Shown here piece after piece: positions 5,090-48,210 of a stretch of DNA of 64,000 nucleotides. The position numbers and the translations under genes were made by a program. The stretch spans positions 372,001 to 436,000 of the forward strand of contig NW_021835991.1 in NCBI RefSeq assembly GCF_006345805.1, given 5' to 3'. The stretch comes from Octopus sinensis. Taxonomy: Eukaryota. Within the stretch, counting starts at the first letter, position 1. Each line of letters opens with the position of its first letter. The notes under the pieces are model-generated. The model made no database searches. It was not told the origin of the DNA and saw only the letters and a program-made list of their open reading frames with translations.

Positions 5090-6542
5090 AAGGAATCTGG
5101 GGAGTGTTACCATTAATTATCGGTATCATATTTCTTGTTTTAGTTTTTTTCTATCTTTTGTGTTGCAAACCTAAGAAAAAGTTAGAGGGAGAGGAGAATA
5201 GATCGACATTTCTTTGCCATTCAATAATTTCGCTGGCAATTGCGTATATTTTGAAAAATCTTAACTTCTCAGAATAATTTTTATCTATGTTGGCTATTCT
5301 TCGTCTATTCTCCAAAAAAACGTTGATGATATCCAAAAACCATATATTTCTATAATTTCCAGTTTTACTGACATTACTGAACTAATTGTATGTATTAATT
5401 TTATTTGCAATGAAATAGAATGAAAAAAACAAATCTGTTAGAGTCATCATTTCAGATTGTCTTAAAGAAGCAAAAAATATCATTAAAGATCCTAAATATG
5501 ATGATTTTAAAAATAACCGGAAAGACAATATCGACAATTTATTAACAGACCTTGAAAGTAAAAGTGGAGAATTTAGCATTGGTGATATTGATTTGGAATC
5601 ATTTGATCTCTCAAAATATGAAGAAACGCGAAAAACAATAAATACATACATACAAAAATACATGTATGTAATTTTTAACTACCTAGTATTCCTTCCTTAA
5701 TGGGAATATCTTATACTTCAGCATTTTTTATTTTTTTGATAGGAATCATGAAGTGGTTTAGAAAAAAGACCATTATTAAAATGTATTTTATTAATATTAT
5801 TTACAAGATTATGTATATTTATGGTTATTCTGGGATTAATCTTGTTGGTTATCGGATGTATATTTACAGCTGTTTCAATGGTGAAATAAATTAAATTAAT
5901 AGTAGATTTTAGCAAATGGATGTCCCAAAATAAATGTATTTGTGAAACAAATTAGTTAGTGTAATAATCTAATTGACTTATAGATAATAGCCACATTACT
6001 AACATTTTTCATATGTGACAATGAAATTCAGAATCCTATCGTATATATAATTCAAATTAGATTTCCGATTTGAAAAAAATAACAATTGAAAATTATTTTA
6101 ATACGACTGAAATATCTTGCGATGACAGTCAATTTGAATCAACACTTCCTGACTTAAATGTCATCGAGGAAACACTCGATGATCCAAAAATCAATAATCA
6201 ACCAGTCTCTAAACCACTTGATGAGTACAAAACTCAATGTTATGAAATTAGAAATAAGATATCAGTTATTCAAATAATTTAACTTTTTATGAATTTAGGA
6301 TCTAAAGAACAGGACTATACAGAAACTTGAAACAATTCTGAATGAAATTATAACTAAAATGGAATTCTATTTAAGTTGCAGTGGAATCTCCGCATATGTC
6401 ATAAATATGAAATGCACAATTTGCTCTATCTTTGCGTACTTTTGAGCCTGATATCTATTTTAGACAAAACATAATTCTTTTAGGAATTATGTCAATAATT
6501 GGGGTCATAATATTTTTTCTAATCCTCCCTTTGACCCTTTAA
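5090..6542 (+). CDS. Multi-exon multipass membrane protein, prominin/tweety-like architecture (5' end unresolved, at least one indel)
   Basis: Tiny GT-AG introns (e.g. 5664-5686, 23 nt; 6436-6463, 28 nt) join hydrophobic segments: FFYLLCCKPKKK..IISLAIAIIFIYVG, IPSLMGISYTSAFFIFLIG, LCIFMVILGLILLVIG, LSCSGISAY..CTICSIF..NIILLGIMSIIGVIIFFLILPLTL*. Family call is from topology only. Confidence 0.5.
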
Positions 6543-7538
6543 ATGATAAAATAATATATTAATCTTTCTAACAAAGTGACTAATTTAATGGAATTATAAT
6601 TTTATTTTTTATACAGCAGATTTAGGATTTATTTGAAATCAATAGATTAACATAATGAGCAAGTTGTGCTAAAAATCGTAGAAAACTTAATGTGTTAACT
6701 TTGAACAAATTATTAATGCCATTTTGAGAAACCATTCCAGGAGATTGGTTCTATACAAGAGTCACAGATCTTATTCCAAAATGTAAAAATCTGATGTTTC
6801 CAAATATGTTACAGATTGGGTTGCCAACTTTTAGTTTGGCCATTCCAGGAAACGATCAATTTTAGACTGGAAAGCCAATATCGCTTGGCAGCTTTGCTTT
6901 CTTCTTCGGCGGAGTTTTACCAAAATATCATCATATGAAAATTCTGAATTGAAACAGTATGTTCGACTGACTCGGTCTGTGAAGAAGCAATAGGATTAAA
7001 ATTTCAAAATACAAGTAGTTAAGTTCAACAAAAATATAATAAATTTTAAATGGATTTAAATAATTATTTATATTAAAAAAAAAGCGTATGAAATTAGTTT
7101 TCAGTTCATTAAAATGTTTTAATTCAGACAAAATACTGATTAATTAATAAATAGCCTCTGGGTAGGCTCTAAGTGTCAGAGTTGATAAATCTGATTTATC
7201 ACTCCAAATTACTATAATTTTGAGAATAAATTTATTTGCGTCGTCTAATTTGGTTCCATACGGGAATACAGATGGTAAATATAGGTAACAAGTACCCCAT
7301 GTTTTTTTGGGAAACAAAAATTAAAATTTATTTTTGTTGAATTAGATCAGAAGGTTAAAAACCGCTGTTTTTCCTTGGAGCCAAATTGAAATTTTCGAGC
7401 GATTTGCCAGAGCTGATACGAACCAAAAAATCCTTTCATGTTTGACACTAGTGGATTCCACGTGACACATACAATCAGTCTTTTATTCGTAGAAATTTTT
7501 AATATTTCTGGTTTTCCATATTTTATCCATTTTGTCGA

Positions 7539-8181
7539 TATTATTATTAACACATTCCGTAGGAACTAACAAAGTTATAATCCCACACGTGTCATAACGA
7601 AACAATTTTCTCGACCATCCTCGTCCATGCCCCTCTGCGAGATCCTGCAAAGATTCTAGGTCGTCCCAGTTTTTGAAACTTTCGCGATGAAGTCCGAGAT
7701 CCCTTTCCAGAACTGCCAGAAGAGTGGATCTAGGTCTCTTCCACGAAATTTGTATCCATGTTCAGGGAAATAATCGTCCATTGCCTGATTGGCCCGAGCT
7801 CTGAGGTCCATTTGCAAAATATGGCCAAATAATTTCAACCGGCCTCCAACGATTTTCTTGTGACAACGGCTTAGCAATCGTAGTGTCTATACAGTGATAG
7901 TTTGAACGTCACAAACTCGGCTCCCTACTTGGAGACAGTGAAGACATTTCTCGACAAAGATGCTTGCTACCGCGGCTCTGCGGCTAAGCAGAATACGTAA
8001 AATGGCTCAAGCTTGGCCTATAAATCGAGCACTCAGATCAAGGCTTTTATAATGCATTAGTAAAGCCCGTTCTACTATACAACTCGTCAACATGGGGGAT
8101 CTCGGACACTGAACTAAAGGCTATAGACTCTTTTCACTGTAAACAACTACAGGTTTTACACGGAATACACTGGCCATCAAA
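7539..8181 (-). mobile_element. 5'-truncated RTE-clade LINE with inverted 5' segment
   Basis: Minus 7590-7895 encodes RLKLFGHILQMD..FRGR. Plus 7920-8180 encodes the preceding LYNALVKPVLLYNSSTW..HWP. (TAA)n tail; candidate TSD tttgtcga at 7531-7538 and 8182-8189. Confidence 0.75.
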
Positions 8182-8299
8182 TTTGTCGAATAACGTTTGA
8201 TTTATAAATTATGTTTTTTCCGTATTTTTATATTTAAAAGTTTAAATCTTTATTTAACAGTTCCATGTTTTTTAAACTGTTCTTGGTGCCCTTGATGCA

Positions 8300-9988: not shown

Positions 9989-11002
9989 TTAGTAGGACAG
10001 AGTCAGATAGAGTTTTTTTTGTAGCTTAAGTTGCATTACTTGATAGCTAAGGAATTATAACAAACTATAACCGTCTTTTCACATTTTGTATTTTTTCTGA
10101 GTGTTCTGCTTCATATCTACTCAGAATTTCAAGAAGAAAATTAGAGGAAAATGATATACTACTACAGCGTCTAAAACTCAACACAGACACCACGCTATTC
10201 TGTGGCACTCCATTTTCCCGCCGCTCCCGCAAGTAGACTATTGGTACACTGAACACTTTCAGATCCCTCAAAAGGTGCACGAGTGGTTTATCAAAGAGTC
10301 GAGTTCTCTCTCTACTAAAAAGTAGAATTTGGTCTCCTTACTGTGGGAGACGTGGAGGAACAGGGAATACTCCCGGAAGTCATTGGTTATCTGTACTCCC
10401 ACATCCAGGACAACCTGGAACTTTTGGAAGAGAATTTGAATCACTTCAAAGGCCATAGAGTCCTGGGTGACGTATATCCCACTCGCAGTCCCCCGCTCTG
10501 GCTTGTAGATTATCACGTTTGGGTCCTGTTTGTTTTATATACTATTGGACCTCGGAGGTTTTCTTTGACTTTTCTACTTTCTGAAGTGATTTTGAGGAAA
10601 TTGGGACGGGATGAGAGATTTGTGTTGTCACGTCACGACGAGTAAAACTGAGTTGATTTTGTACGTCCCAAACAACTCGAATTCTTCCACTAATTTTGAG
10701 ATCTTGGTTTCTCTGAGTGTCAACATGGGCACTAACTTTGTCCATTCGGAGGAATGAGACTACGTTGCTCACTTTGTTGAACTGCTCCACTGCTTTAATA
10801 GCCGTCCCTGTCACATTGGCCTACATCAAGACTTACCTTTGCATACTAATTATATCCTGTTAATAATCTTACATTTTATTGGCTGATCAAATCTGTTATT
10901 GTCAAATAATTAATTATTTAAAAAGACCATCTTATAAGTAGTCAAGAGTAGTCTATTCGAATTTACTGAGTCAATTCCTCCAAGTTGGTAGTGAGAGCTC
11001 AT
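9989..11002 (-). CDS. RASSF2/4/6-like Ras-association + SARAH domain protein (multi-exon; one apparent 1-nt deletion; 5' exons tentative)
   Basis: Spliced product LKISGRIRVVWDV..YKPERGTASGIYVTQDSMAFEVIQILFQKFQ..YSLFL..DKPLV..VYLRE..VPQN..EILSRYEAEHSEKIQNVKRRYQ follows the C-RASSF layout. Introns 10526-10550 (25), 10391-10414 (24), 10315-10341 (27) and others. Confidence 0.7.
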
Positions 11003-11663: not shown

Positions 11664-12454
11664 TCAATCAAACATATCACATTTTTTTAGAAAATCCCTA
11701 TGAGCATACATATACTCTTTAGGATGACGAGAAAGATGAGCAGCATGACTAGAATTATCCCAATAAACACTCTTCACATTATTCTTCTCAGATAACCTCT
11801 CAATAACCCTCTCCAAATAAACTCGATCAGACATTGGATCATCCAAGGAATAAAACATTAAAGTCGGTGGATGATTATCGGCTGTACATAACTCATTAGC
11901 AAGTTTATCAGCTCTGTCTATTATTCTTGTTAGGTACAATGTAATAAACAAAGTAATAGGCCACCCAACGAACAGAGGTTAATGAAGAAGAATTTATTGA
12001 CATACCCAAAGCCATATTCCTGAGTTCCCCACATGCCACACTGTCAAAATTTGTCCTACGATTTTGGCTTGTCAGATTTCGTGAAAGGCCGTAAGAATTT
12101 AGAGACGAGAAAGCCATGAAAGATAAATAAAAACTCCAATAAAAATACATGAACGAATATTTTATCATATTTTGGTGAGTTTTGGTCAAGAAAGCCCCGT
12201 AATGTTGTCTGTGAGACTTTGGTTGTATTTCTGACTAAGTAATTGCTGAATTCCACCTTGAACTGAAGTATATCACAATTGACGTGTTGATAGAGCTTAA
12301 AGTAGCTGTAATGAGATGACTTTTTTGAGGAAACCCACGGAAAAAACAATAATAGAGAACGATTTTTTTGATGATTAATTTTTTTCTCATAAAAAATTAT
12401 GTTTTTTGAAACATTGAATTGTGTATATTTTGATAAGATAGAATGTGGTCGCAT
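11664..12454 (-). pseudogene. TMEM53/DUF829-family alpha/beta-hydrolase-like gene with several frameshifts
   Basis: LFFPW..IFVHVF, (K)IVGQI(F)DS, LMFYSLDDPMSD, WDNSSHAAHLSRHPKEY spread over three frames; may be assembly error rather than a true pseudogene. Confidence 0.7.
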
Positions 12455-14104: not shown

Positions 14105-15630
14105 TCAAATACTTCTCTTTCAATTTTGATATCACATTTATCCAAAAACTCGTACATCTTTAAAAAATAGTTTTTTTAATTAAATTAATTTTATATATCA
14201 AAATACTAACCTCGTTTGGAGGCATCACCTTCACGATTTCATCAATTCCCAGTCCCCAGTTTGTAAAAATAGTCGGATTTAACATTGCCCCTGCATTAAG
14301 CTCGTCTCCATAAGATGTAAAGTCACTTGTTTTTTTAATTCGTGGAGGTTTCAAATCATAACGAAGTGTAGTAATCCATAAACACGATTATTTGTATCTT
14401 TGAAATAAATATTGGTTAAATACCTTTACTCAACTGTCCATATTGAGAAGCTTTGGTATATTGGGAATAGGAAGTCGTTGAAGACCAATTTTTCTTTTTA
14501 CCATCGCTTATATCTCTATTAGGCTGAATTTCAACATTCAAATTGTTATCATGAAATCCGTTACGATAGTCGAGAAGTTGTAAAATTTTGTTTATATTTA
14601 ATATAGTTCTGAACACATTTCTTCCTGGCAATAATTAATTATGAATTCCAAATAAATTTTATCCAATTCGATTTTCATTATCTCAATAATATTTAAAAAA
14701 TTTTCTAAACTCACAAAATCTTCAGAACTCTTATAAAATTAGCAAAAATAAAATAAACTGAAGTTCTCAAAAGATATTCAAATTCTCTAAAATTTCGAAA
14801 GCCACTCACTTTCAGTTTTTTCCTCAAATCCGCGACTAAACTCTCAACATTCAAACTTAAATTTTCATTATCGTCAAATTTATTATCATGGATTATTTGA
14901 GAAACTTTAATGTTGTCACTAATAGATTTGATGCCATAAGTATGGTCAACAGAAAGGTGTTTTGTTCCTTGAATTCTGCGTTTTTTAATGTATTGCATAT
15001 TAAATACGGATCGCATGTAGTTCCGAGTTTATGTTTGTTTAGATTTCGCCAGGAGCTCAAAGACATGTCACAAATTGTAGCTTCTTTCATATTCTCTTTA
15101 GTTGCAATTCCAATTTTCGTTCCGTTTTTGCCATTACTTCCATCTTCTGTTTTATCTTTTGATGTTAGTCCAAAACGTTCTTCTTTATCAAATGGTTTTG
15201 AATATTTTCTTTCTGTTTGTTTCCACGGTTCCGTAGATTTTAAACTATTTTGATTGGTGACATCATATTTCATCAGATCGCTTACTTTTTCGCCTTAAAT
15301 ACTATTACATGTTTTCACCATATTCAGTCTTTTCTCCATACGTGTGATTCAGATTGTCAAAAGTGTCGGAATAGATTGATATTTTGTTGTTCTTGATCCC
15401 AAAGGATATTTACTTCTTTGGTAATTCTGTTCATTAATTGAGTTGATTATTTCATTAAAACTGAAATTTTAAATTATTAAAATTACAATGTTGTGGGTCT
15501 TGGATTTAGTGAGTCCTTAATTTCAGAAATTTCGTTACTTGCTATTCCATGGAATGTTTTATTTAGTTTTTCTAACTGGTCTTCACGGAAATTACCACTG
15601 AACTTATTCGTGGAAAGAGGTGGATTATAA
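14105..15630 (-). CDS. Unidentified multi-exon gene (low-complexity N-terminus, C-terminal ..WGLGIDEIVKVMPPNE|MYEFLDK..)
   Basis: Overlapping minus-strand ORFs separated by short GT-AG segments (e.g. 15461-15486, 26 nt). No family recognised; boundaries approximate. Confidence 0.35.
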
Positions 15631-20738: not shown

Positions 20739-23594
20739 ATGTCAACAGCCAGTAGACTACCACGAACAGTACTCCCCTCTTTATACAACATACTCATTAA
20801 TCCGGACTTAATAAATTTCACCTTTTCCGGAAAAGTTGACATAAATTCAGTCGTTAATGAACCTTGCCGTTTCGTAAGATTGAATTCCCGTGACCTCGAA
20901 ATCACAAAAGCAGCCATTATTCAAGGAAACAAGACACTTCCAGCCACATGGGAGTACAACATCCGAGCTCAGACACTCGACTTGCTCCTCCAGGATGATC
21001 TAGTACACCAATTTTTGATAATTTGCCAGAATCCCGGACCAGCTAACATTATATTGGAATTCAATGGTCCAATCGGGAATAAAATGGAGGGATTTTATAG
21101 AATAAAATACAATCTTAACGGCGAAGAAGTTTACGGGGCGTCCACCCAGTTCGAGGTATTCAAAATTGATAATTTTTTTAGCCGATTGACGCACGAAGAG
21201 CTTTTCCTTGTTTTGATGAACCCGACATGAAGGCTCAATTTCGCCTATCCATAATATCCCCTCCAAATAGAACTGTCCTTTCAAATATGGTCTTTAACCT
21301 ACCAATAAATCACAGGAAGTTGAGAAAACAACGGTCCTTGAGGATGGAAGACTCCTAAAAGAGTTTGGAACAACACCTCGAATGTCTACGTACCTGGTGG
21401 CCTACATTATTGGGGATTTTGAATATGTGGAGAGACGGAGTGATCGGGGAGTCAGAATAAGGATATACACCCCAGTGGGACGGACAGAAGAGGGGATGTA
21501 CGCTTTGGATGTAGCGGTCAAATCTTTGTCGTTTTATGAAAATTTTTTCGACTTGGAATATCCACTTCCTAAGCTCGATCTTGTCCCTGTCCCGATTTTT
21601 CGGCAGGTTTGTAAAAATGGGTGACAAAATAGGGGCAATGGAGAATTGGGGGTTGGTCACATTCAGAGAGACCACAATCCTTGTTGACCAAACGCTTAGT
21701 TCGGCTAGAACCAAGTCGTACGTAACGACTGTTGTAGCACACGAGTTGGCACATATGTGGTTTGGGAATTTAGTAACGATGGTATTATTTATAATATAGT
21801 TGTGGTAGAGGTGGTGGACTGATTTGTGGCTGAATGAAGGATTTGCTACTTTTATGGAATATTTCTGTTCTTCCCGATGTTATCCGGAATATAATTTCCA
21901 AGCAAGATTTATAACAGGTGAGTTTATGGATTCTATGAATGTGGATACTCGTTTAAACACCCACCCTGTTGAAGTCGCCGTTGATGACCCTTCCAAGATT
22001 GATGAAATATTTGATGAGATTTCCTACTCCAAAGGGGCCTCAGTCATAGCTATGCTTTTTTATTACATTGGGGAGGCTGGATTCAGGACTAGTCTGAGGT
22101 CTTACCTTACCAAATATTCCTACCAAAATACTGAAACACGTGACTTGTGGAATTCTTTTAAGGAATGTGGTTTTAATGTGGAAGGGATAATGAATACGTT
22201 TATTCACATGCCAGGATATCCCGTCGTGTCCGTGAGTTGTGATTCAGCCCAGGATGGATCTCTGGTTATGGTATTGGAACAAAAACGATTCACATTATTG
22301 TCTGGAAGGACTGGTTCTGAAACATTTGAGAACGGGGAAAGAACATTCTGGAACATTCCAGTAGGTTATACTACTGAGAGTGGAGCTGGGAATATTAATT
22401 ATGTGCTCTTGGAACAGCCTCGACAAGAGTTTGCTCTCAGAGATGTCAACGACTCTCAGTGGATTAAACTCAACGCAGGAGTCCATGGATTCTTCCGAGT
22501 TCAATACTCAGCTCCACTGTTTGCCAAATTGTTGGATTCTGTTTCCAACATTCCAATAAACGACTGTATATCTCTCCTCAGTGACACATATGCTTTGGTA
22601 TTTCACATTGTTCTATTTCAGGGGCTTTGTGGATATATTCCAATGGAAATGCTCTTCCGATTGACAGAAATGTTTACAAAGACATACGAACTTTCTATTT
22701 GGGAAGTGATTTCTGATTTCGTTCGTGACATAACCAGGATTGTGAGTGGCACTCCTGTAGACGGTCAGTTTACACTGTACGTACGCCGACTACTGATGTC
22801 TGGAATATTCCAATATGTGGGGTGGGATGTCCAGCCGAATGAAACACATGAAATCTCTCTTCTTCGTAATGTTGTATTTGGGATGATGGCACGTTACGGG
22901 GATGACCAATTCCAATCTCAATGCAGGCAAGTGTTCGAAAGGATACTCCAGACAGATGCCTCCGTAGCCATAGTAGACCCAAATATACTTTTGCCAGTAT
23001 CATAAAAGAGAGTAATATATAGATATATCAATGTGTCATGTCTTGTGGGACTTTGAAGGATTTGAACGACCTGATGGAGTATTATGAGAAGGTTGAGAGA
23101 GCAGAGTCCCGAAAGAATATAATTCAGGCAATCGGGTGTTTGAAATGTCCGGGAGGGCTTGTTCGGATATTTGAAATCCTTACGAGTGTTGGAATAAGTG
23201 TTATGGCATTAATAGGGCAAACTGCGTTCTCAGGACATTGTCTACCTGTTGAGAGGACTGGGAGTACGGCCTGAGAATTCGTCAGAACTGTGGACGCTTT
23301 ATAAACAAAATTATGACTATTTGCTTAGTGCAGTTCAGAATTCGACAATGACTAATTCTATTAAAGTATTTGGTTGTTATTAGTTGGTAGATCGTGTCGA
23401 CTTATTTGAAAACGGCAGATCAATTGAGGGATTTTAATGTAGAGGAGTTGTTAGTATTTTAGGAATTTTTTTCGGGTAGATCTGAGGGAGTAGAAATGAC
23501 TATTGCTCAGTGTGCAGAAGAAATTGGTGAGCTGGAGATGAGATTCCAAAGACATATGCCCGCTTTAGAGGCTTATTTCAATTCTGTTCTGTAG
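20739..23594 (+). CDS. NPEPPS: Puromycin-sensitive aminopeptidase (M1 family), 10 exons
   Basis: STQFE|[37 protein letters not shown]. Introns 21156-21181, 21290-21315, 21607-21632, 21782-21808, 22598-22621, 22997-23022, 23188-23215, 23366-23390, 23439-23462. One extra base is needed at ~21591 to restore PDFSAGAMEN. Confidence 0.9.
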
Positions 23595-23777
23595 ATTCTG
23601 GTTTACTTTGGTTTCAATTTTTGTTTTTGAATATCACTATTTATTGATCTCGATTTCATAGTTTGTGTTATTCAAAATTTGAGAAATGAATGCCAATTTC
23701 ACGATTTTAACGAAAATTAAAAATTACACAAAGTTAATTTTTGGCTAAAAAACATCTGAAAAAACTCAGTAAATGAA

Positions 23778-24293: not shown

Positions 24294-24358
24294 AAAGTAC
24301 CTAATTGCTTTAAGCTTTCCACATGTTAACAAAATTAAACAAATATTTCAATAAAAAA

Positions 24359-29526: not shown

Positions 29527-32109
29527 TCATAGTTTCCCTGAATTTGACTTATTAAAATATACAAATAAAATATTTCTTAACTGGATAGCCAATTTACAAA
29601 GACCTGTATCATCAGGCAAAACGTCAAGTGCTTCAAGAGTAAGCTCCATCGCTGTTAAGTAATCACCAGTACTCATTAGTTCTCTGCAACGTCACAAATG
29701 TCAAAACTACCTAATCCCCGAACAATCATACCCCACGTCAGCTCCCTCAAAACTATCCTCGACATATAATTCTACGATATCAATAACCCACCAGAACTAT
29801 CAGCAATTGAAGACAACAAGGACGATTCTGAGTCACCCACGTCTCTCACATCAGAAGCATTCGAAGAATCGGATGCTAAAACCATGCCACCTTTAAACTA
29901 AAATAAAACAGAATACCGTCTTGCGAAGATTCACTCTCAAATATCAAAGCATTAGAAAAACGTTCTTCTAAAGACGATTCTCTGGATGGACAAACATCTG
30001 AAATAGAAATGACTGAAAAATCAAATAAAACGAGATTACCTTCTTGTTCGCACTCAGAATTAGGAATAGAAGAACAATCAACTGCCAATTGATCAAGGTG
30101 GTCTATCGCGAGTTTGGTTCTCTCTTCATTCACGAAAGTCTCGCTGGATCCAGAAAATGTTAATTCATGATTTGAAACACCATAACAATCTAGAACTGAC
30201 ATTTTACGAATTTTACCAGGAAAACCAATTAAACTCTTCAGACAGTCCGCAAACTCTGATGGAATAGAGGAAGTAAGCTCGTTCAACTGTTCTTTGGTTC
30301 TCGAAACACGAGCATCCTCAATATTGAACTTGAAAAGCTCGTAGAGTTCAAGATACGAAAAATGTCGGTTAAGTGATGTATTTTCTGTATCCCCAGGGAC
30401 AGTTACTCCTCGGTTTATAGTGTCTTTGAATATTTGCCGACGATAAATAAACTCCTCGACGGTCCCACAACTGATTAGCCTATAAACCACCACTGGGCGG
30501 GTTTGACCGACTCTATGAGCCCTTCCAATGGCTTGACTATCACTAGCAGGATTCCAACTCGGATCGTCTTAAAATTAAACCCAAAATTGATGTACATATC
30601 AAAACTCTGTCCGCAAAGGTCAAAGTAAGTCCAACTCCTCCAACCATTGTCGTCAAAAGCAAAAAATTTGGGGATTTTACTGGGTTTTGAAAGGCGTCCA
30701 CAATTTCTCCTCTCCTTTCCATTTGGACATTTCCGTCCATTCGAAGTAATCGGTGACCCTGAAATGTTTCAAAAAACTCCAACTTGGCTAAGAAGAATCT
30801 TCTCAAGAATGTCAAGAACTTTCAGAGATCGAGAGAAAACGAGTGTCCGATGTCCATCTTTTGCCAAAGTGTTAAGCAATCGGACAGCAAATGCCAGTTT
30901 TCCAGATCCCTTGATGAGGGAGAGAGGATCAGGGGACTGCTGTTTCAACCGACGGTAACTTAAAATCAACCAAAAATATACAGCAATTCCACATCAGGAT
31001 CCCCATTGGACTCTTTAAGTAATGTTTCCACCACAGAAATATGAAGAAGGTCAGGATGGTCACAAAGTTTTTTCAAATTGACAATCTCAATGAGTGGGGA
31101 CCTCGTCGAAGTCATTGACTGGGATTACATAAGAGAATACCTCTCTGACTTGTTTGGAGGACAATAATTGTTGATAGATTGATATTTGATGATCATTCAA
31201 AAAAGTCCAACATACCAAATCCAGTTTTGGTGGGATTTCAGACAGACCAGTCGATTTAAGTTCAATTTGGTCTTTAGTTCTCCGCAGAATGAGAGGATCA
31301 ACCATTTCTTTAAGTTTTCTAAGTCGAGTCTCCCCCAATCCTTGGACAACTGCACTCGTTCCTCGCTCATTTGCCTAAAATGAAAGAAAATAACACACTC
31401 TGCTGATTTTTGTAGCGAAAGTTTCCTTAAAGTGCTTCATCGTCCCCAATTGATGGGTTCCACTCGTAACAAAATCCACAAGTGCCCACAATTCCTAGAA
31501 TAGCCTAAAATAAAGACCATAAGATTGTTCTGCAAAGGTGTCCCAGTGAGGGCTAATCGTCGATGACTCTTCAAAGAATTAAGGATTTTAGCAGATTTGG
31601 TTTGATTTCGGAGAACATGTGCCTCATCCACTACGATCAAGTCCTATGATAAGAAAAAAACAGTACAAAAAATGTGTTTCTCAGGTTGTCTGCAGAGTTG
31701 AGGACTGTGGTGTAGGTCGTCAAAAGGACCCCCCGACGATTCAAAAAACGACGGAAATATTCTAGCTTTTCTCTTCCGTAGAATTTATAATATGGAAATG
31801 TAGTTTTCCTGGAAATAATGTTAAGAAATAACAGACCATTTAGAAATTTCATTTTCCCAATTCTTGAGGAGATTGGCAGGAACAATTATTAGAATGAGAA
31901 GAGAAGTGTCTTCTTCATATAGAGACTGGATGTATGCGATAGCTTGAAGAGTTTTTCCGAGTCTGGATTAGTTAATATGGAAAATACCCCATCTCATCAC
32001 CCAGGATTGCCCCTTTTGATTTTTGTAAGGTCTTTTGGATCCATAAAACACCGTCTCGTTGGTAATCAAATAGTTTTTTGATTATGGAATCACAACAACG
32101 CATTTCCAT
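29527..32109 (-). CDS. ERCC6L: ERCC6L/PICH-like SNF2 helicase, ~15 exons
   Basis: [75 protein letters not shown], and a C-terminal TPR-like [21 protein letters not shown]. Introns of 22-28 nt (e.g. 31963-31987, 31809-31836, 31644-31666, 31495-31517, 31375-31398, 31119-31140, 30959-30981, 30759-30783, 30568-30595). Start and last exons less certain. Confidence 0.85.
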
Positions 32110-32192
32110 ATTATAATATGATCCCGCGTAGTTTAATTATTATATAATGTGATACAATAAAAAATATACTATTTAACTATTTTCATAAAAAT

Positions 32193-33507: not shown

Positions 33508-33838
33508 GAATATACCATTTCTCATACTAAATGGGATTAACAAGAAACTAAGTAAAATCAATAGAAACATAAATGAACTCAATGACAAACGACGTATGAT
33601 TACCAGGAAACTAAGTGGCCTCAATAGAAAACTAAGTGGGATTAATACCAAACTAAATGGAATTAACACCAAACTCTTTTCACGTGAGCTTGATATTTCT
33701 CTTCTAATAATTTACGTGACATTTTTATTCTATAATATTTCTAACTAAAGTAATCATTCGTTTTATGCCCACTTTGTTATTGATTCCACGTAGTTTTTTA
33801 TTGATTCCATTCATTTAGTATGGGAATTGATATATTTT
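33508..33838. repeat. Foldback/MITE-like element with imperfect inverted ends and ~21-bp internal repeats (copy at ~50909-51239)
   Basis: aatataccatttctcatactaaatg pairs imperfectly with catttagtatgggaattgatatatt; repeated ..aaactaa(g/a)tgg.. units. Confidence 0.55.
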
Positions 33839-34154
33839 ACTGGTCAAGTCAACTGGTTTATGAAATTAAAGAAAACAAGCATTCTACTCCGAAAAAACTT
33901 GCAAAAAAACGCAGATTTAAATCACAGATCACAGTAATAAAACTATAAGAATCTGTTTAAATTTTAGGAAAATAGTACTGATTTTTATTACGCTGCCATT
34001 TCTGTCACAGATGAGTTAAAAAATTAAATTCATCAAAAAAATTTATATATCGATTGCTAGTGATGTAAATATTAATTTTGTAACATATATGGACAACTTG
34101 CTATGCATTTAGTCTGCCATTTTACTACTAACGCAAATAAGTTTTTCATGCTAC

Positions 34155-37565: not shown

Positions 37566-38453
37566 TTATTGCCATATTTTATTCGTAATATTCCTTTTGA
37601 TTAATTTATAGTTGTCAACTCCTTTTGATTGTTTATTGCCATATTTTATTCGTTATTTTCAAACCATAATATTCCTTTTCATTAATTTATAGTTGTCAAC
37701 TCCTTTTGATTGTTTATTGCCATATTTTATTCGTTATTTTCAAACCATAATATTCCTTTTCATTAATTTATAGTTGTCAACTCCTTTTGATTGTTTATTG
37801 CCATATTTTATTCGTTATTTTCAAACCATAATATTCCTTTTCATTAATTTATAGTTGTCAACTCCTTTTGATTGTTTATTGCCATATTTTATTCGTTATT
37901 TTCAAACCATAATATTCCTTTTCATTAATTTATAGTTGTCAACTCCTTTTGATTGTTTATTGCCATATTTTATTCGTTATTTTCAAACCATAATATTCCT
38001 TTTCATTAATTTATAGTTGTCAACTCCTTTTGATTGTTTATTGCCATATTTTATTCGTTATTTTCAAACCATAATATTCCTTTTCATTAATTTATAGTTG
38101 TCAACTCCTTTTGATTGTTTATTGCCATATTTTATTCGTTATTTTCAAACCATAATATTCCTTTTCATTAATTTATAGTTGTCAACTCCTTTTGATTGTT
38201 TATTGCCATATTTTATTCGTTATTTTCAAACCATAATATTCCTTTTCATTAATTTATAGTTGTCAACTCCTTTTGATTGTTTATTGCCATATTTTATTCG
38301 TTATTTTCAAACCATAATATTCCTTTTCATTAATTTATAGTTGTCAACTCCTTTTGATTGTTTATTGCCATATTTTATTCGTTATTTTCAAACCATGATA
38401 TTCCTTTTTGATTAATTTATTGTTGTCAAATCCTTTTGATTGTTTATTGCCGT
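37566..38453. repeat. Minisatellite, 81-bp unit, ~11 near-identical copies
   Basis: ccttttgattgtttattgcc recurs every 81 bp (37621, 37702, ...); stops in all six frames; diverged partial unit at ~37384-37485. Confidence 0.95.
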
Positions 38454-39065
38454 AATTTGCTTTCATCGGAATGAAATCTCGAAATAATAAGATTTTTAAA
38501 CGGAGCCTAGAGATATAATGAATATCATTACCATTTCGTAAATAGTTTTTAACTATAGGACAATGTGAAATATTCAAACTGAGATACAGTTGTTGATATG
38601 AAACATTTATAATAATATCAATGTAAATACTGGGGACAAAATTAAAAAAGAAGTATTTTCCAATAATATTCCGATACGCAGGTACAATATATCTTTAATA
38701 AATTTATAAGAGAGCATTCCAGGAAGTTTATTTTAAAGTAGAATCATATCCCCAAATGATCAACGCTTTATAACACGTGTGTCTGCACTGTTCAAACTCA
38801 TGACTAATGTTATGATTACAACGTATGAATTTGATTCGGTTAGTCCCGAATTTTTAATCAAAAAATAATTGGATTGTAAAATTTAATGGATCGTTGGCTG
38901 TCAAAGAAAAGAAAAATTCAAACACTATGAGAAATATGTCTATATTGCGCGTAGAATTTTCTTCTTGAAATTTATTGTTTACTCAAACTAACAAATCATA
39001 TTTTCAAAAATGATCCAGGCCGAAATTATAGAAATAACTCATTTGTTCACGGTTGGTGAATATTA

Positions 39066-39281
39066 TAGGGTTTTCCACACTTTCACAAAAAATGGCGAAA
39101 TTGCTTGAAAAAGTAGCGAATTTGCTTGAAACAATAAACCGATAATCTTCTTATGCACAAAATTGCTTGAAAAAGTGGCATAATTGCCTGAAACGAAAAG
39201 CCGATAATCTACTTTACACGGAATTGTGTGAAAAGTGGCGAAATTGCTTGCAAAAGTAGCGAAAAAGTGTGGAAAACCCTA
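39066..39281. mobile_element. MITE with 18-bp TIRs (copy at 52945-53161)
   Basis: tagggttttccacacttt / aaagtgtggaaaacccta; internal aaattgcttgaaaaagt(a/g)gc repeats; TSD ambiguous in TA-rich flanks. Confidence 0.85.
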
Positions 39282-40356
39282 TATTATAAGCATTTGTTAC
39301 AACTATAAACGATATTTTTTCAAACTTTCTTAAAAAGCCCTAACTCTATGCTATATAAAAATATAAATAAGGATTATGTGAATAATTCTAATTACTGGCT
39401 GATTAACTGAAATTATTTTTTCAGTCTGAAACTTTTTCCACTCTTGATCAAGACAGGGATATATTTTTTCATGAGCAGAATTAAATTTGTTTTTATTTAA
39501 AAAGTAAAAAAAAGTTACCAAACTAGTAAAAAATGTCCCAGAGTATATGTCTCAGTTATATGAGGAAACATTCATTCGACATTGTGTCATTAATTTGACA
39601 TTAAATACAAAACAAACTCATCTAGTACAATCTATATCGGCAAACGGTTCAGTCTAAATGAGGATGAGTCAATGGCACTCACGTAGTTTTATAATTTCAA
39701 AAAATGATGATACTTTCTAAAAAGTATCTTCCCGAGAACTAAACCAGCTCTTCATTGTTTTGATTTGGTGACATCTGTCAGTAAAAATTTATTCCCAATA
39801 TGACTTGGTTCAACATTATTTGCGACATCCTTTAAATTGAGCGTATAGAGAATGAATCCTAAAACTCGACCGACTAGTCATTTTGTGAACTGAAAATAGT
39901 ATAATAGGGCATTAGTCGCCTGAATATGTCCTGTTTACAATTTTAGTCATCCCGTACCGGAAGTTCTTTGTTAATATTTTGGTAGGATCAAGCGTATAAA
40001 AAATTCGACTCTTCACACTGTATCAAGTAAACTTCAATTTGAGCACTTTGATGTGATGAGTCCTCCTGTTCCTCAATTTAAACTCTTATGGGCGGTATTC
40101 TAATAAACGTTAATGAGTAATGAAAAATTTCCACCATTTCTTATTTTTCAATTAAAAACAAGAAATTCTTGGTTAATTTTTGAGAGGTTTTTCAGACCTT
40201 GATTAATGTCCACTTTTTTATTAAATAAAATATATGAATTAAAAAAGATAATTAAATATATTCTTAAAAAGATTATTTCAATTTAATTTAATCCAATACT
40301 TTAAGAGAAAAATGTACAGATTTGGCTCTGAAAATTTCAACTTAGCAAATGAAAAC

Positions 40357-41178
40357 CTAAATCTTATTAAAACTTGAATTGATCTTAATCCAATAATAGT
40401 TGATCTGATTCCAAGATTCATTAAGCTTAATATAAATACAGAATATTTTTTCAAAATCAATGGAATCGTCATTGTCAATATCATTCCTAAAAAGTTTAAC
40501 ACAGATTTAATACCTATAAACATAAAAACCGGAAATGAAATAACACGAAATAAAAGAGATATCAGTAAAAGACCAAATAAACACTAAATCATTCAAATGC
40601 CATATTTTACCTTAAAACTCTTAAATTTATCTTCAAATTGTAAAAGGCTTAGTAAAGGTTTTTTTGAAATTTTACAGTAAACGAAACAGCAAGTAATAAT
40701 CTCACATAGTCGCTCTTGACTAACAATATAATTTTCAGGATGGATAAATTTTCTAAATATTTTTAATAAAAACTATACTTTAATGGATTTTGATATAACA
40801 AATATTGATAACGATAACCAAATAAATTACACGCTTTAAGGGTAGCAGAAGTAAAAAAAATTCCCAAAATTATATTTGATAGGGAATATAAAAGATTTTG
40901 ATAATAAAATGAAACAATAATAGCAGTGAAAGAAAGAAGAAAACATGTCGAATAAGTTTTGTTTTTCCAATAAATGATATTTGAAACTGATAAATAATTA
41001 GTCTAATTATAACTATTATGATTTTGTTCTTCGTTAAAGAAAATCTTTGTTAAAAATAAAGGAAATTGAAAAAATTCTGAAGATTGCTCATCTACAGTGT
41101 TCGTCAAGAAGTTTTACCTGATTTTATTAAATTTTTTTGATCGTCTATAATTTCTTTATTGGTGTAAAGACTCGCCAT
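40357..41178 (-). CDS. Reticulon-family protein, 7 exons (copy A)
   Basis: Splicing 41092-41117, 40987-41013, 40753-40778, 40584-40610, 40487-40513 and ~40405/40411-40439 gives IIYWKNK..QNPLKKFI..VSQERL..LLQFEDKFKSFK..TIPLILKKYS..INYY, the reticulon-homology-domain layout. Confidence 0.8.
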
Positions 41179-41482
41179 CTGATTATCACAAGAATACTTG
41201 ATAACAGAACAAACTGTTTATGCTAATTATCAATGAATTAATTATAAATTATATTTAAACTAACGCTTCTTCAAATCTAAATAATTTATATGTCGGTTAA
41301 AAATTTTTTCCATTTATTTTGTAACATGCGACCTCAATAGATGACGAGGAAGGTATTAGTAAAATTCATTATTTGATATTGTTCCCTGTGCGTCATTTGG
41401 CCTCAATATTTGATCTAAACACTAACACCATATTCAGTCCTCAACTGTCTTGGACAATTTTCTTGAATTTATTTATAATAAT

Positions 41483-41985
41483 TTTTTTTTTAACTTCAAA
41501 CATTTTTTAACCGGAAAAAGAGTTCTTCAAAATAGCTAATTAAGTGTCAGCAGTGGCTGCACCTCGGATTGCAAGCGAGTTACCTCGCAAGATTGCGATC
41601 GATATCCTCTGGTACAGCCAGCCGATTTGGCGGTGGTCCTTCGTGCACTTTTGGATGCACTTCCTAATTTCGGTCAGAAGCGACACTCCGGCCGTCCCTA
41701 TCACTCCACTTGTCTCCACAGCAATCGGGACAAAGTGGTAATTTGGTGGGAGAGAGGCGTATTTCTTCCGCTTCGTCTCCTCACCCCGACGGGAAGCGAA
41801 GCCGGGGAGGACGCAGACTGAGCAACGGTCCCGGGGGGCAAAGGTGTCCGCGCAGGTAACATCCCAAACGAGACATTTCCCCTCCGAGAATGGAAAGACC
41901 GTCATTCCGTCTGGACGCTTGCCGTCGCCACGGTCGAAGCCGACAACTTTCTCGGACAGGGACGTGAAGGCAGGATGAATAATCA
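41483..41985 (-). mobile_element. 5'-truncated CRE-like retrotransposon (copy at ~57863-58366)
   Basis: [38 protein letters not shown]; T-run tail at ~41483. Confidence 0.85.
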
Positions 41986-42729
41986 TTTAGATATCTAAAA
42001 AAATAATGGCTTACGATGCGAACTCTTATAATGTCTGATAGTAATTTGTTTTCGCACTATAAAGTCATTGCAAGTAAAAAAATTGTTGAAAATTTGGCTT
42101 CTCAATGTGATAAACATTTTAAACACGATTATCTCAAGATATACAGTATATTTGTTCTTTCGGCCCGTTTACTGAAGTTTTGCATTCAATTTATTTCTTT
42201 CATAATTTATTAGTTATTAAAAATTACAAAACTTGGAAAGTCTTATTCTATTATTTTATGGTGAGATATTCAAATAGAATGTTTGTCATAAGGAGTTTAT
42301 TTTAAGTTAAAACCAGTCTAACTAAAGCAAAGGCCTGGTACATGCGATTAAATATTACCACGTCGAGATTAATTAAGAGCTTTTCTGCAATTTGTTTTAC
42401 ATTTTTTAAATACAACTGATCGTCTTTTAATTTCGCAAAAACTTTCAAAAACGATTGATTATCGGTGTCAATAAAAATTTATGTTTTGTTCTGTTTTAAG
42501 TAATTGAATAATGAATATCAAATGTTTTATTTGATAATGTTCCAACAATCTAATCTATTTTATAATATTATTTTTAACCATATAGTAAACATATGAATTT
42601 TTTCCATTACACAAAGTTTTATCAAGTACTTTATCTGATAAAAGACTGTAGAATTGTTTTTTAGATGGAAATCAATAAAGACTGCATTGTTGAGATTGCA
42701 AAATCAGTGATTTCCAATTATAATTTTTA

Positions 42730-42812
42730 TTTCTGTTGCTGTCGTGAGAGGCAACGCATCGTCGATAATGTCGGCGGGGTCTATTTCGGATGGATGGCTT
42801 TGTTAACTTCTC
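42730..42812 (+). mobile_element. ~85-bp CRE 3'-end remnant (copy at ~59119-59200)
   Basis: gtgagaggcaacgca..ttcggatggatggctt matches the reverse complement of 16022-16095. Confidence 0.65.
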
Positions 42813-45504
42813 GTTGATGTAACTATTATTTTTTATAAAAGTCGAATTTTTATTTTAAATCGAACAGAATTGAATCGCGAGCATTGCATTTCTAAAAAAT
42901 CCTGTTCTTCGGCGATACATTTCTGAAACAATATAATTTAACGAATTAACTTTTTGGCTACAATCTGAGTATCTCATTTGAATTTGGTCACATATAGTTT
43001 CATCACTTACTCTTAGAAATATGAAAAACAAAAATACTTGCACTTAAGTTGTTCGATAAGGAATCCGGAGGCACATCAACTAGAACAATTTGTAATTTTT
43101 AACCATTTAGAATTATTTTGTTGCTAAACAAAACTAGTAAGAATTCGTGAAATACCCCAATATGAATATGATAGTCATTATTTTTGACACAACCAATAAA
43201 ACAAGTATGATTAGCATTTTTCTAATCTTCAAAACAAATAAAATAGGTAACGATTTAACCACAATAAATCCATGTTATTTGTAATTAAGAATAATAGTTT
43301 TGCATGGTTCATTTAATTCGAGGAATAACGGATAGGATTTCATTTCCGTATGCTGAATCTTGTTCAATATAGCTTAAAACCAAATCTTTCATCGAATCCT
43401 ATTAATTGGCAAAAATTAACCGAGAAATTGAGTATTTGTAGAATATTGTAATCATTATTTTGTAGAAATTCATTATTAAGTTGTTCTTTAAATTTTTCAT
43501 TTTGAAATAAACCACAAACTTCTATAAATATATCGTTCGCAATATTACGTGGAAATTGCCTGTCGGCGACTCATCTAATTTAGTTAAAATTAATTATTAT
43601 AAAAAAACTTCTATAAATTCAACGTTCATATTTTTTAATCAAGCAAATATAATTAAAAATTTATAGATTTTTCGTGAATAAATTAGCCGACAAAAATTAA
43701 GCATACAAACTGTGTAAAGTTTACACACACTGTAAACTATACTTTAACTTTAACCCTCAGTTAGGAATAACTAAAATTACATGATTAAAGTGAAAAAATT
43801 TCTCAGTTGAGCATTTATTATCAGTTGTTATCAATACAGGTCTCAATTCATCATAGAAAATAAAAATAGGTACATGCATATGTGCATAACAAGAATAACT
43901 AATAAAAAGGTTTTGAATTCTAATCAACTAGCTCTAACAGAGTACCAAGCGATAAATAAAAAATAAACGTGTCAGTCATAAATTAATATTTTTAGTATTT
44001 TTAATTAATAAATTAATATAATTAAAAACATTTTCTTTACTAAATAAGTATAAGAGTTTTTGTTAAAAAAATTGGGTGAAAAATGGTGAGTGAAAAAGGA
44101 ATACGCAAATTTATTAATTATTCTGACTTGAAAAATTAATTAATTAATTTGTAGAATAATGCAAAGTCAATAGTTAGATGTTGTGTTTTTATTTATCGTT
44201 GAAATAACGGATCAATATTATATAAAATTTTGTTTATAACGAGGATCTTTACAGATAACAAATTCAAATCTGTTGCCGGTCCTCAAAATATATTTTGTGA
44301 TATATATTGTCTTTAAATATATTGTAATTAATTTTTTGTTCTCCATTGATCTCGAAAACTGTGTGGCTAGAAAAATGAAGTCTCGGGTACATATGTGCCC
44401 TGTCTTTGCGGAAGTGTTATCTTATTATATATATTGTCTTAATCATATACTATTTTACGTTTTCAGTTTTAAAAGTTTTGTCTTTGCCTAAAATTTTATG
44501 AAGAGCGAAACCATAAACTTTGTTTACTGGCAACGCGAACGTGGATTAACTAACTAACTAACAATTTTTATAATTTCATTCGAGTTCATTCTCTTTTTGA
44601 TATAACTATTTTCCTTAAGATCGGGTGTTTTTCGAAAATTGTGAGCTTTATAGATAAAAAAAGTTCCTAGACTCACTAAGAGCATCAAAAAATGAAAATA
44701 TTAATTCCATATTTTGTCTAATTTATTGGAAAATCTAAAGGTAGTTTTATTTCAGCAAAAAGTTACCTTCGACTATCTGGAGGTAGTTTTGTTAGAAAGT
44801 TCGGTACTTGTAGACAAATTATTTTGGGGATAATGCTCTGGATGCACTTTGCAAAATGAAATTTTTTTTTAATCAAGCGAAACTAAGTTCAATATTTGCA
44901 AGTTTGCTGTGTCACTGAAACAGTATGACGATTCGAGCTTACATTGTCGCTAATTTAGTTAAAAAAGTATCAAATCGATTTGTTTGATTATAGAAAGTTC
45001 AAGTTCACCCAATCGTATCATTTGAGCACTGGGAAATCAGCTGGCAGTATCAGAGAATATCTATAGCAATCTTGCAAGGTAACTCGTTTGCTATTCGCAA
45101 TGCAACCACTGACGATTACTAATCCTAATTTTTACTGTACATAAATATCAATAATATTTTTTTAATAAGAAATACCAGATTCAAAAACTGTATATTTATC
45201 TTTATTAGTAATTCCAAATATTATTTGCTTTTGGAAATTCGTATTAAATTTATTAGGGCAGTAATTCACGCAAATTAAATTAAGATCTTAAAGTTAAGAA
45301 AATTAATTAAATGACATTACAAATTATAAAGGAAAGAAAATTTTATTTCACCAAAACCAAAAACGTTTTTTATTTTAAGAGAAACCCTAATTTTTATTTT
45401 AAATTTATACTTTTTGTAAGAGATAGCATCTGTAATTATTCCTTTTCCAAAATCCTACAAAATTGTAAATTTACAAAAAAACTAGACGTGAACTGAATAT
45501 CATT

Positions 45505-45770
45505 GTCTACGTAAGTGAGCGAATTCTCACTAAGATGCCGACACTTTTGGAGTAGGTCAATGTGGCTAAAATATGGAAATAACTCTTCGATCAGGAGGTT
45601 TATTTTCATATTTGCAGGATAGGAGTATGCTTTACCGTGATAACAGATGGAGGTTTAATGAGGAGGTTCTTCCATCTTCTGTTTAAGATTAAGTATGGCT
45701 TGAAACGGTCCATCAGTGTGTGAGAACTTGAAGACGTACAATGAATTAAATACCCCGATACGCACTCTTT
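45505..45770 (+). mobile_element. Heavily deleted R4/Dong-like remnant (copy at ~62172-62425)
   Basis: Collinear short matches to the reverse complement of ~17440-18060. Confidence 0.7.
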
Positions 45771-46499
45771 GATAACTTCGAAGACTTAGTACTTAGTCTA
45801 TTAAAATAAAAACTATTTTAAGATAAATATTTCCACGCAATTCAATAAATTGAAATTTGATATTTCTTGAAGTGAATTTCGACAAGTTACAGCTTTGCGT
45901 ACTTAGCAATAATTGAAAAATGTGTTATTATAAAAACAACTTTAAATATTTTTAGCGTATTAAAGAAAAAAATTTCATGTCTGATGAAATAGATTCACGT
46001 AAAATACGGGTTTTCTGAATTTGATTTTAATTATACAGCAAGCAAGATTAGTAAAAGTAGAATATGCATCTGATAGATTCACCCAGGTTATATTTAATAA
46101 TTATTTCAGATGATGGAATCTTTAAAATTTGACAAAAATGAACCGAATGAAAATGATTATAAAAACCTTAATTAATTGATTCTAAGTTCATAATAGAATA
46201 AATTTCGAGTTATATTTTTTCCCAACTAGTTTAATATTTTTTTGACATTCATTCTTATAATATTTTTAAGCAACAAGATCATTCTCTCCGTAGAAAAATA
46301 GCATATTATATTCCCAAACTTTTGTACTTAATACATTTAAAGTTTTTCTTCATTTGCTAGGACTTTTTTGCAGGCTAAACAAATCTTTTAAAACACTGTC
46401 GAAAAATCGTCAAAACCTATTTTCATGACTGTGAAGAGCTGATATATAGATTTTATCAACTTCTTCCTGAAATTATTTTATTTACCAAAAATAAAGTGA

Positions 46500-47101
46500 A
46501 GAATGAACTATTAAAAGACAAAGGTGGCAGATTTAGGATTTTTTGTTGATATATCTCTACATCTGTCTACCCTGAATGTTGAACTACCAGGCAAAAATAA
46601 GCTTAATTATCAAATTTGTGGATATATTGATGAATTCGCAAAAATTACGTTTATAGAAAACGCAGATATTTACCAATTAAACTGGCAGAGTCTTAAAAAG
46701 GACTTAAATTCATTGAGATTATGTGCAACTCCACCAATTATGAAAAGTGAGGAGATTTCCAGAATTTATCAACTGGAATTAATTAATTTACAAGGTGATA
46801 TTGAACTGAAAAGTGTGTTCAGCAGCACTTCAATCATTGAATTTTATTTGAGACTACCAGATTGCCGATTTCCGAATCTAATCAATAATGATAAAATCAA
46901 TTAAGCAATTCTAAGAACAACATCTGTCTGCGAATCGACATTTAGTAAACTGTTCGAATTAAATGATTTTTTTGCGTACTTAAACTTGTCAAATTAAAGC
47001 TAATTTTAATTTTTAAATAATAAATAATTGTTAAAAAAATATTGGTGGCCTTTTAATTTTTTTGTTTGTGGGCCCTAATTAAAAAAGCTTGAGGATCACT
47101 G
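46500..47101 (+). mobile_element. hAT (GTF2IRD2/SPIN-like) transposon 3' relic (copy at ~63170-63772)
   Basis: DLGFFVDISLHLSTLNVEL..QLELINLQ..FPNL..TSVCESTFSKL; terminus ..ttgaggatcactg. Confidence 0.75.
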
Positions 47102-47639
47102 ATTTATACAAGTAATTTTTGTCAAAATTCATTAAAAAATTTTTATTGTGCTGATATCAAATAAATTAGGAGCGAGAGTATTTCTGTAAAATTTCCAGCT
47201 CAGCAATTAAAACTTGTGTAAATTGAAAGTAGAATTCAGCAATTCCAAGAGACGACAGATGTTCCTGAAGAGCATCCAAATCCGTTACTACATAAGAAAG
47301 TGTGGTAGCCAAACTAATCAGTCCTAACGTCACAGGGACATTGATGTTTAGCCAAAACGATTATCCAAGACAGACTAAAATTCGTACTGATTCACAAAGC
47401 AGCACTCAGACTACACTTCACTATAATTTGTAATTTGTTAAACAAATTATTTAATTGATGTTAATCCGACCGTTATCTGCTGGAGGTTAATCTCCTCCTT
47501 TTAGAGGAAAAAGTAACCAACACCACTCCTTGATCCTCTATCTCCAAGTTAGTTACGACTCTTTTCCCCTCATTCTCCATATTATCTTCGTACGAATGAC
47601 TTGCTTCAATTAAGAGGCTAATAATTTGTAATACTAATA

Positions 47640-48210
47640 TTAAATATCATTTAATTCGTCTGGAAAGAAATAAATTAAAAATAGAAAACATGACAAGTTA
47701 AAACAAACCAGCTCTGCAATACGGACAGGTCCGTTTTATCTAATAATATAAAATAATCAAACTAAAATCCATTTCCTAGCACAAGATCGATGAAAAAAAT
47801 GAGAACAACGAAATTGAGCAATTTTTGAATTTATATTGTACATTTCAAGGCAAATTGAACAAACATCGTAATCTTTTTCATTCTTCAAAGTCCTGCAAGA
47901 TTTAAGAATTGATTTGTATTTTGTAGGCTTCCCAAGTAAGAAATTAATTCTTCGCTTTTTAATACTTCTACGTCTTAAGTCCTAAAATGTATAAACACAG
48001 ATGCTACATCTTGATCGACTTCTAAACTGATAAAGTCAGAAAATCTGGATATCGAGAAGATTGTTCTTCTTGAGTATCAAATTGGTACGATGGAGAATAA
48101 TCTGAATCGATTTCATAATAAATTTGAGTAATTAAAGGATGATCGTCTCGTGCTATTATGCGATACCCTAAAAGTTCGTCGTCAATTTCATTTTCTCCAT
48201 TTCGCGACAT
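47640..48210 (-). CDS. RING-H2 finger protein (putative E3 ligase), 4 exons, one apparent 1-nt deletion
   Basis: CSICLEMY..FRCSHFFHRSCARKWIL|IKRTCPYCR; introns 47982-48007 (26), 47740-47762 (23), 47660-47708 (49). Confidence 0.8.

Follow-up and report, generated by a model that had tools for sequence, protein, structure and literature searches.

Which organism carries protein-coding genes split by introns of fewer than 30 nt, and how would introns so short be recognised? The question is raised by a 64,000-nt stretch of the Octopus sinensis assembly GCF_006345805.1 (contig NW_021835991.1, positions 372,001 to 436,000; C12462:372001-436000 in our numbering, hereafter the window), within an assembly of 2.72 Gb in 13,516 contigs. 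A first-pass annotation of the window, made from its letters alone, described GT..AG segments of 22-29 nt in several genes as spliceosomal introns. Our analysis makes it highly probable that these are ordinary U2-type GT-AG introns, 22-29 nt long and at ancestral animal positions, on a contig of a dicyemid, either Dicyema acuticephalum or a species very near it, that was assembled together with its cephalopod host. The introns are precisely removed in read contigs, stand at conserved positions and have invariant GT and AG ends, and a U1 with a canonical 5' end, U1-70K and SF1 occur on tiny-intron contigs.

Tiny introns in the aminopeptidase gene and its neighbours

Read evidence comes from the gene for the puromycin-sensitive aminopeptidase NPEPPS.

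20739..23594, + strand: puromycin-sensitive aminopeptidase NPEPPS; Pfam match (M1 aminopeptidase); 10 introns, 24-28 nt
21003-21029, 21156-21181, 21290-21315, 21607-21632, 21782-21808: NPEPPS introns 1-5
22598-22621, 22997-23022, 23188-23215, 23366-23390, 23439-23462: NPEPPS introns 6-10

Pfam model positions 1-35, 36-86 and 87-218 continue across the frame shifts in this gene, as expected of a gene interrupted by short introns. All nine sizes first noted here (26, 26, 26, 27, 24, 26, 28, 25 and 24 nt) were borne out, and the earlier list lacked one further intron, at 21003 (27 nt, in frame and stop-free). When contigs of four public runs from three studies (X2, X3, X4 and X6) were aligned over 20300-33000, with 12 of 19 indel rows displayed, nine of the ten introns were skipped exactly. 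The bases left out at the intron sites number 27, 26, 26, 26, 27, 24, 26, 28 and 25; each skipped intron was seen in one to three of the four runs, and the tenth (23439) lies beyond the ends of the contigs listed. In X2 and X6, run-contig depth is 40-590 over NPEPPS but drops almost to 0 on either side of the gene, and from this cover and the intron skips we infer that the contigs derive from transcripts.

The positions of the introns point the same way. A spliced aligner in which the intron penalty was flat, with a minimum intron of 10 nt and no maximum, queried with a profile of 69 homologs, called nine introns of 22-28 nt in the window NPEPPS. Its 22-nt call is an artefact of a missing base: one base near 21590 is absent from the assembly's copy but present in the run contigs and in copy L014, and both of these give 26 nt. 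The same aligner found 18 introns of 24-34 nt in the paralog L007 and 18 of 306-2836 nt in the host NPEPPS ortholog on the chromosome-scale scaffold C23. All ten window introns match long host introns in position and phase, the first of them after inspection, a coincidence with a chance of about 7e-22 if positions were random. One intron of the paralog L008 (L008:1358-1384, 27 nt) is GC-AG where the other paralogs and the host have GT-AG; three of the 16 introns that the aligner called in L008 (55, 11 and 13 nt) were judged misplaced and left out. U2-type introns are characterised by GT..AG or rarely GC..AG ends, precise removal from transcripts, and positions and phases common to long introns of other animals; NPEPPS shows such removal at nine of ten sites and such positions at all ten.

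An artefactual origin, in which the segments would be host DNA altered by errors of long-read assembly, by small insertions or by the decay of a pseudogene, is vanishingly improbable. The assembly does carry 1-nt indels, and the region occurs in several copies. Exact GT..AG skips in independent runs nevertheless refute this explanation for NPEPPS, and it is further opposed by the host-matching positions, by GT and AG ends that are invariant across copies, and by the host having an ortholog of its own, whose introns measure 306-2836 nt.

Some other features of NPEPPS were recorded. The window copy lacks eight of the 18 introns of L007, mostly in mid-gene, and its branch is very long; it is nonetheless the copy represented in the read contigs. 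A spliced leader was considered for a 32-nt loose 5' end in X2, which lies at the AG before the NPEPPS start and is absent from the window, and was rejected; the loose end is likely a chimeric contig end, since 28 of 30 bases match host scaffold C4. A second loose end, in X6, had no match among the 50 loci compared.

Comparable introns interrupt a helicase gene, a putative ERCC6L ortholog.

29527..32109, - strand: SNF2-family helicase (ERCC6L-like); Pfam SNF2-rel_dom and Helicase_C; 12 introns, 22-28 nt
31963-31987, 31809-31836, 31644-31666, 31495-31517, 31375-31398, 31119-31140: helicase introns 1-6
30959-30981, 30759-30783, 30568-30595, 29891-29916, 29772-29797, 29684-29710: helicase introns 7-12

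Removal of these 12 introns, whose 22-28 nt agree with the range first noted, yields a single stop-free frame of 760 aa with continuous SNF2 motifs, and a predictor whose training data came from outside the window recovered 11 of them. In a comparison with eight other copies, which are not independent of one another, substitutions affect 0/334 GT/AG positions, 104/1779 intron-body positions (5.9%) and 415/16212 exon positions (2.6%). The gene is nearly without contig cover in the four runs. Nine copies of the segment, at 78-100% amino-acid identity, are present in the assembly, and Pax6, U1-70K and SF1 were each found once. A candidate host ERCC6L locus proved to be a SMARCA2/4-like gene and not the ortholog.

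Two more genes have introns of this kind.

40355..41178, - strand: reticulon; Pfam, host exon sizes, copy comparison and prediction
40987-41013, 40753-40778, 40584-40610, 40487-40513, 40405-40439: reticulon introns; predicted sixth, 41092-41117
47698..48210, - strand: RING-H2 protein gene; Pfam zf-RING_2, reading frames, and a motif completed upon splicing

The first four reticulon introns are 27, 26, 27 and 27 nt long. The fifth measures 29 nt in a second copy near 57 kb; the copy described here has GG in place of that AG, which makes the intron 35 nt, so that the 26-29 nt originally given for reticulon holds with the 29 taken from the second copy. Reticulon exons measure 208/142/70/47 against 208/139/(third not found)/47 in the host, and a homolog search with the reticulon exon matched no representative proteins. 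The RING gene has two clear introns, at 47982-48007 (26 nt) and 47740-47762 (23 nt), and removal of the second completes the RING-H2 motif; a third near 48088 (20 or 23 nt) is ambiguous and was excluded from the count. Altogether 30 introns in four genes are supported by reads, homology or motifs. The original figure of more than 40 introns in six genes stands to that extent; the remaining genes, described below, contribute 11, 3 and 4 introns by prediction only.

The organism behind the contig

Dicyemids are 30-cell parasites of the cephalopod kidney. The chromosome-scale portion of the assembly is that of a cephalopod, with a Pax6 paired domain identical to that of Idiosepius paradoxus at 118/120 residues. 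A different Pax6, on contig C9061, is 98% identical in the paired domain to D. acuticephalum Pax6, the other matches listed reaching at most 79%; over its whole length it is identical at 391/408 residues and has seven introns of 23-30 nt. Two repeats, one of 446 nt (97% identity) and one of 91 nt (98%), are common to the window and C9061, whereas the window and 240 kb of host DNA share no match of at least 60 nt. The tetranucleotide correlation of the window is likewise 0.69 with C9061 versus 0.30-0.38 with the host. Because the Pax6 contig is linked to C12462 through repeats and composition, C12462 very likely belongs to D. acuticephalum or a close relative.

Repeats of C12462 (at least 92% identity) also recur in eight of nine other tiny-intron contig groups, including the contig with a short 18S. 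That 18S, on C1618, is 1,667 nt long, and the full-length host 18S is about 2.6 kb; among 16 matches, of which 12 candidates were scored, there is a single non-host type. In a tree of NPEPPS, the window copy falls together with two paralogs that also have tiny introns, and the host copy joins gastropods at 99. No dicyemid NPEPPS is among the 120 matches listed for the window protein.

Another tiny-intron co-biont, such as a myxozoan, a ciliate or an undescribed animal, is a very unlikely source of the contig. In its favour, no named dicyemid protein matched on C12462, and even the best database matches to NPEPPS share just 37% identity. Opposed to it are the repeats at 97-98% common to the D. 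acuticephalum Pax6 contig and the single non-host 18S type. As to a ciliate, the window genes follow the standard code, in which TAG and TGA are stops; some ciliates read TAA/TAG as Gln. As to a myxozoan, the hosts named in the available text of PMC13644364 are fish plus annelids or bryozoans.

The dicyemids, one of the groups named at the outset, are thus very likely the right one, and the description of an intron-rich animal proved accurate, with intergenic DNA rich in repeats. Contigs C1618 and C6303, those in the ranges C8433-C9300 and C12125-C12762, and others, 17-959 kb in length, carry tiny-intron genes and common repeats. Many tiny-intron contigs are a parasite genome inside the host assembly. 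Such contigs, the longest measuring at least 959 kb, can mislead annotation of the host, and they also provide a free dicyemid draft genome. No published account of parasite contigs in a host assembly was found among titles and abstract openings, in a search with most subscription journals outside its coverage.

Splice signals, spliceosome parts and a proposed mechanism

We curated a set of 82 introns, 29 of them from the window (one from the second reticulon copy) and 53 backed by reads or homology. The set leaves aside a 44-nt SF1 intron, the third RING intron, the Pax6 introns of C12762 and the reticulon introns of L167. Intron length has a median of 26, a mean of 26.2 and a range of 21-34 nt, and the ends are GT-AG in 81 cases and GC-AG in one. 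Position +3 is A in 19/29 window introns and 42/82 overall, and only seven donors read GTRAG. At the acceptor, G never occupies -3 (0/82) and T occupies -6 in 24/29. Intron bodies are 48% T, without an extra pyrimidine tract. The initial impression of almost no signal beyond GT..AG was thus roughly right, although it overlooked weak signals at +3, -3 and -6 and a peak of A that lies some 17-18 nt past the donor. Introns of 21-24 nt, of which there are 22, have this A at -7 in about 80% of cases, and it shifts to -8 to -11 in longer introns.

The proposal that length mainly defines these introns was also sustained. In 29/29 window introns and in 78/82 overall, the acceptor used is the earliest AG that leaves 20 nt or more between it and the GT. 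Within introns, AG is commoner below 20 nt (58/1312 positions) than above (4/427; Fisher p 2.5e-4), and it is so too in the 53 read- or homology-backed introns (38/848 versus 3/305; p 0.003).

Two genes outside the window add variants of these signals. The 44-nt intron of the SF1 gene (L179 on C8459, about 1657-1700, - strand) can be read as one GT..AG unit of 24 nt followed directly by another of 20 nt and, as a single case, could be a recursive splice site. The U1-70K gene (L176 on C8695) is GC-rich, and its introns of 21-29 nt are GT-rich and often start with GTGAGT, unlike the T-rich introns of the window.

Among the spliceosome parts, U1 was found in a compact form. In a U1 pattern search of the assembly 61 places were listed, 15 of which are of a distinct U1 type on non-chromosomal contigs and fall in two families; three compact copies lie on C12462 itself, at positions 450437, 478093 and 487148 (L134:4360-4505, - strand; L181; L182). 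The sequence that pairs with the 5' site, ACUUACCUG, is invariant in 15/15 copies among the matches listed. The RNA is about 146 nt long, stem-loop 4 is a 6-pair hairpin, and the two bases before ACUUACCUG vary, leaving no conserved 5' AU. Against the U1 model in its full length, one compact U1 reaches 62.2 bits (E 1e-14), where the gathering score is 69.5; eight aligned copies fold as the U1 cloverleaf, with compensatory changes at 7/44 pairs. U1-70K on C8695 has tiny introns and intact domains, and SF1 on C8459 has tiny introns and an intact helix-hairpin, KH-QUA2 and zinc knuckle. A U1 match on C9998 was rejected as a parasite U1, being a truncated copy of host type (106/109 identical to host U1).

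A reduced spliceosome, as first proposed for this animal, is therefore unsupported for the parts found, with ACUUACCUG invariant and the U1-70K and SF1 domains intact. Other parts (U2, U4, U5, U6, U2AF, SF3B) may show some reduction. The stronger version of this idea, in which the dicyemid spliceosome has undergone substantial reduction or remodelling, for example with U2AF or SF3 parts lost or U2/U6 pairing changed, so as to permit 22-nt introns, we consider unlikely. The compact U1 speaks for it, with its length of about 146 nt, its 6-pair stem-loop 4 and the lack of a conserved AU ahead of ACUUAC, as does the report in the available text of PMC10379813 that stem-loop 4 of human U1 binds SF3A1. 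A dicyemid U2 was not among 48 candidates scored; Rfam searches for U1 and U2 gave host copies only among the matches listed, and the U2 search, swamped by host copies, shows no absence. A motif search bearing on the other parts had no match in 743 kb, or about 1% of the genome length that has been published. The invariant U1 pairing sequence and the intact proteins argue the other way, as do myxozoans, which have equally short introns and retain U2, U2AF1 and U2AF2 in the available text of PMC13644364.

The simplest reading would instead be a conventional U2-type reaction with the branch A at the shortest workable distance from the donor. U1 would pair weakly with the GT(A) donor, and U2 and SF1 would take an A about 17-18 nt downstream of it as the branch point, near the shortest span of the machinery. 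The acceptor would be the first non-GAG AG about 6-10 nt past the branch A. AGs nearer than about 20 nt may be tolerated because they would be out of reach, and those beyond 20 nt would compete and hence be purged. With the branch A at minimal distance and the next AG taken, length and T-rich composition would replace the branch consensus and the polypyrimidine tract. A more speculative version, which we regard as doubtful, holds that a second Dicyema species is hidden in the cephalopod assembly and that its U1 is miniaturised (about 146 nt, the 5' AU gone, the SF3A1-binding stem-loop 4 a 6-pair hairpin); on introns of 22-29 nt, U1 and U2 would lie near enough to each other for the U1-U2 bridge to be dispensable, and the spliceosome footprint would serve as a 20-nt ruler. 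If true, it would give a structural answer to how animals splice below the supposed minimum intron length.

Several observations weigh against the preferred account of conventional U2-type splicing in D. acuticephalum or a very close relative. Regarding the organism, C12462 is tied to the Pax6 contig by common repeats and composition rather than by any named gene of its own, the SF1 contig has no repeat common to C12462 in 20 kb, and the NPEPPS tree is a quick one in which long branches meet. A second, divergent tiny-intron Pax6-like gene (L035 on C12762) has introns at Pax6 positions and is identical to D. acuticephalum at 113/227 residues; it could be a paralog or come from a second dicyemid species, and together with the two U1 families it could indicate two dicyemid species. 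Regarding splicing, the runs have no RNA label on record, so that their RNA nature follows from cover and skips, and NPEPPS is the one gene with read evidence. Regarding recognition, 4/82 introns skip an AG beyond 20 nt (two GAG, two YAG), 29/82 were curated by motif, with a possible bias to short choices, the branch A is read from base composition, and the median of 26 nt exceeds that of 24 published for D. japonicum.

Other genes of the window and known tiny-intron systems

We examined 4.5-49.7 kb of the window and compared its open frames with Pfam, using the longest 290 out of 459; AT-rich genes escaped a first gene predictor. Pfam matches comprise the M1 aminopeptidase, SNF2 helicase, reticulon, RING, DUF829 and chromo domain, along with reverse-transcriptase, DDE and hAT elements. 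Three further genes are predicted.

4940..6542, + strand: predicted multi-pass membrane protein gene; prediction only; about 11 predicted introns, 20-36 nt; no credible Pfam match
9989..10745, - strand: predicted gene; prediction only; 3 predicted introns; no Pfam or Atlas support
14598..15434, - strand: predicted gene; prediction only; about 4 predicted introns, 22-32 nt; no Pfam match

Their intron scores of 10.8-18.6 overlap those of shuffled sequence (up to 13.5 in two shuffles). The gtcca donor cited in the first-pass annotation belongs to a predicted 25-nt intron starting at 10550, in the second of these genes. A DUF829 (TMEM53-like) gene at 11667-12300 (- strand) appears to be almost free of introns and broken in this copy. 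The window further contains a tandem array at 37586-38458 (period 81 nt, about 11 copies) and, at 19040-19180, degenerate telomere-like TTAGGG/ATAAGG repeats beside a short inverted-repeat element. Large internal duplications at 93-99% identity pair 31612-33905 with 49014-51307, 38447-40368 with 52325-54247, 40358-44814 with 56749-61197 and 45429-47307 with 62097-64000; they would be either haplotypes or local amplification.

Tiny introns are already known for the genus Dicyema and probably for this species (PMC2222250, PMC2483917, PMC6543705, PMC13644364, each as far as its available text goes), and, the animal being very likely a dicyemid, the novelty of the introns drops, as the first-pass annotation had itself foreseen for such a case. 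The additions made here are modest. One is the co-assembled parasite genome, and the other is that this contig carries a compact U1 of about 146 nt whose stem-loop 4 is short, for which we found no earlier report; no description of a dicyemid U1 was found in a literature search of partial texts with most subscription journals outside its coverage. The located U1, U1-70K and SF1 genes are a start on a dicyemid spliceosome inventory. The available text of PMC13644364 calls the recognition of tiny introns an open question, and in the accessible part of its supplement the U2/U2AF analyses name cnidarians, myxozoans, human and fly, not dicyemids, with U1 outside the search.

The closest known system is D. 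acuticephalum itself. The accessible parts of the two studies of this species describe 16 introns with a mean of 26.2 nt at conserved positions, Pax6 with seven introns (PMC2222250) and, for 41 introns, a 5' score of 0.5 bits, lower than any other known, together with the lack of a branch signature (PMC2483917). Our mean is the same (26.2, n=82 against n=16), positions are again conserved, and Pax6 has seven introns in both. Those earlier data came from a few cloned genes, whereas the present material consists of whole contigs, apparently from the same species, and U1, U1-70K and SF1 have been located. For other members of the genus, the texts available report a median intron of 27 nt in Dicyema sp. 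(PMC6543705) and, in D. japonicum, a genome of 67.5 Mb with 49% repeats and 6.2 introns per gene (PMC6736024), 29,387 introns with a median of 24 nt (Q10 22, Q90 32), and GTa and AG as the only signals beside a weak A run that shifts with length (PMC13644364). The introns described here likewise have GT(a)..AG only and an A run that moves off the AG as introns lengthen, in repeat-rich DNA; their median of 26 nt, against 24 in D. japonicum, comes from a small sample of conserved genes. Outside the dicyemids, myxobolid myxozoans are alike in median length (22-27 nt), reduced splice signals and retained U2-type machinery, according to the available text of PMC13644364, but they are a cnidarian lineage in fish, and the resemblance is convergent. 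Paramecium and the Bigelowiella nucleomorph, as covered in the accessible parts of PMC2222250 and PMC2483917, also have short, uniform introns in intron-rich genomes, with GT(A) donors and no branch signature; their introns measure 20-35 nt and 18-21 nt, respectively, and neither is an animal.

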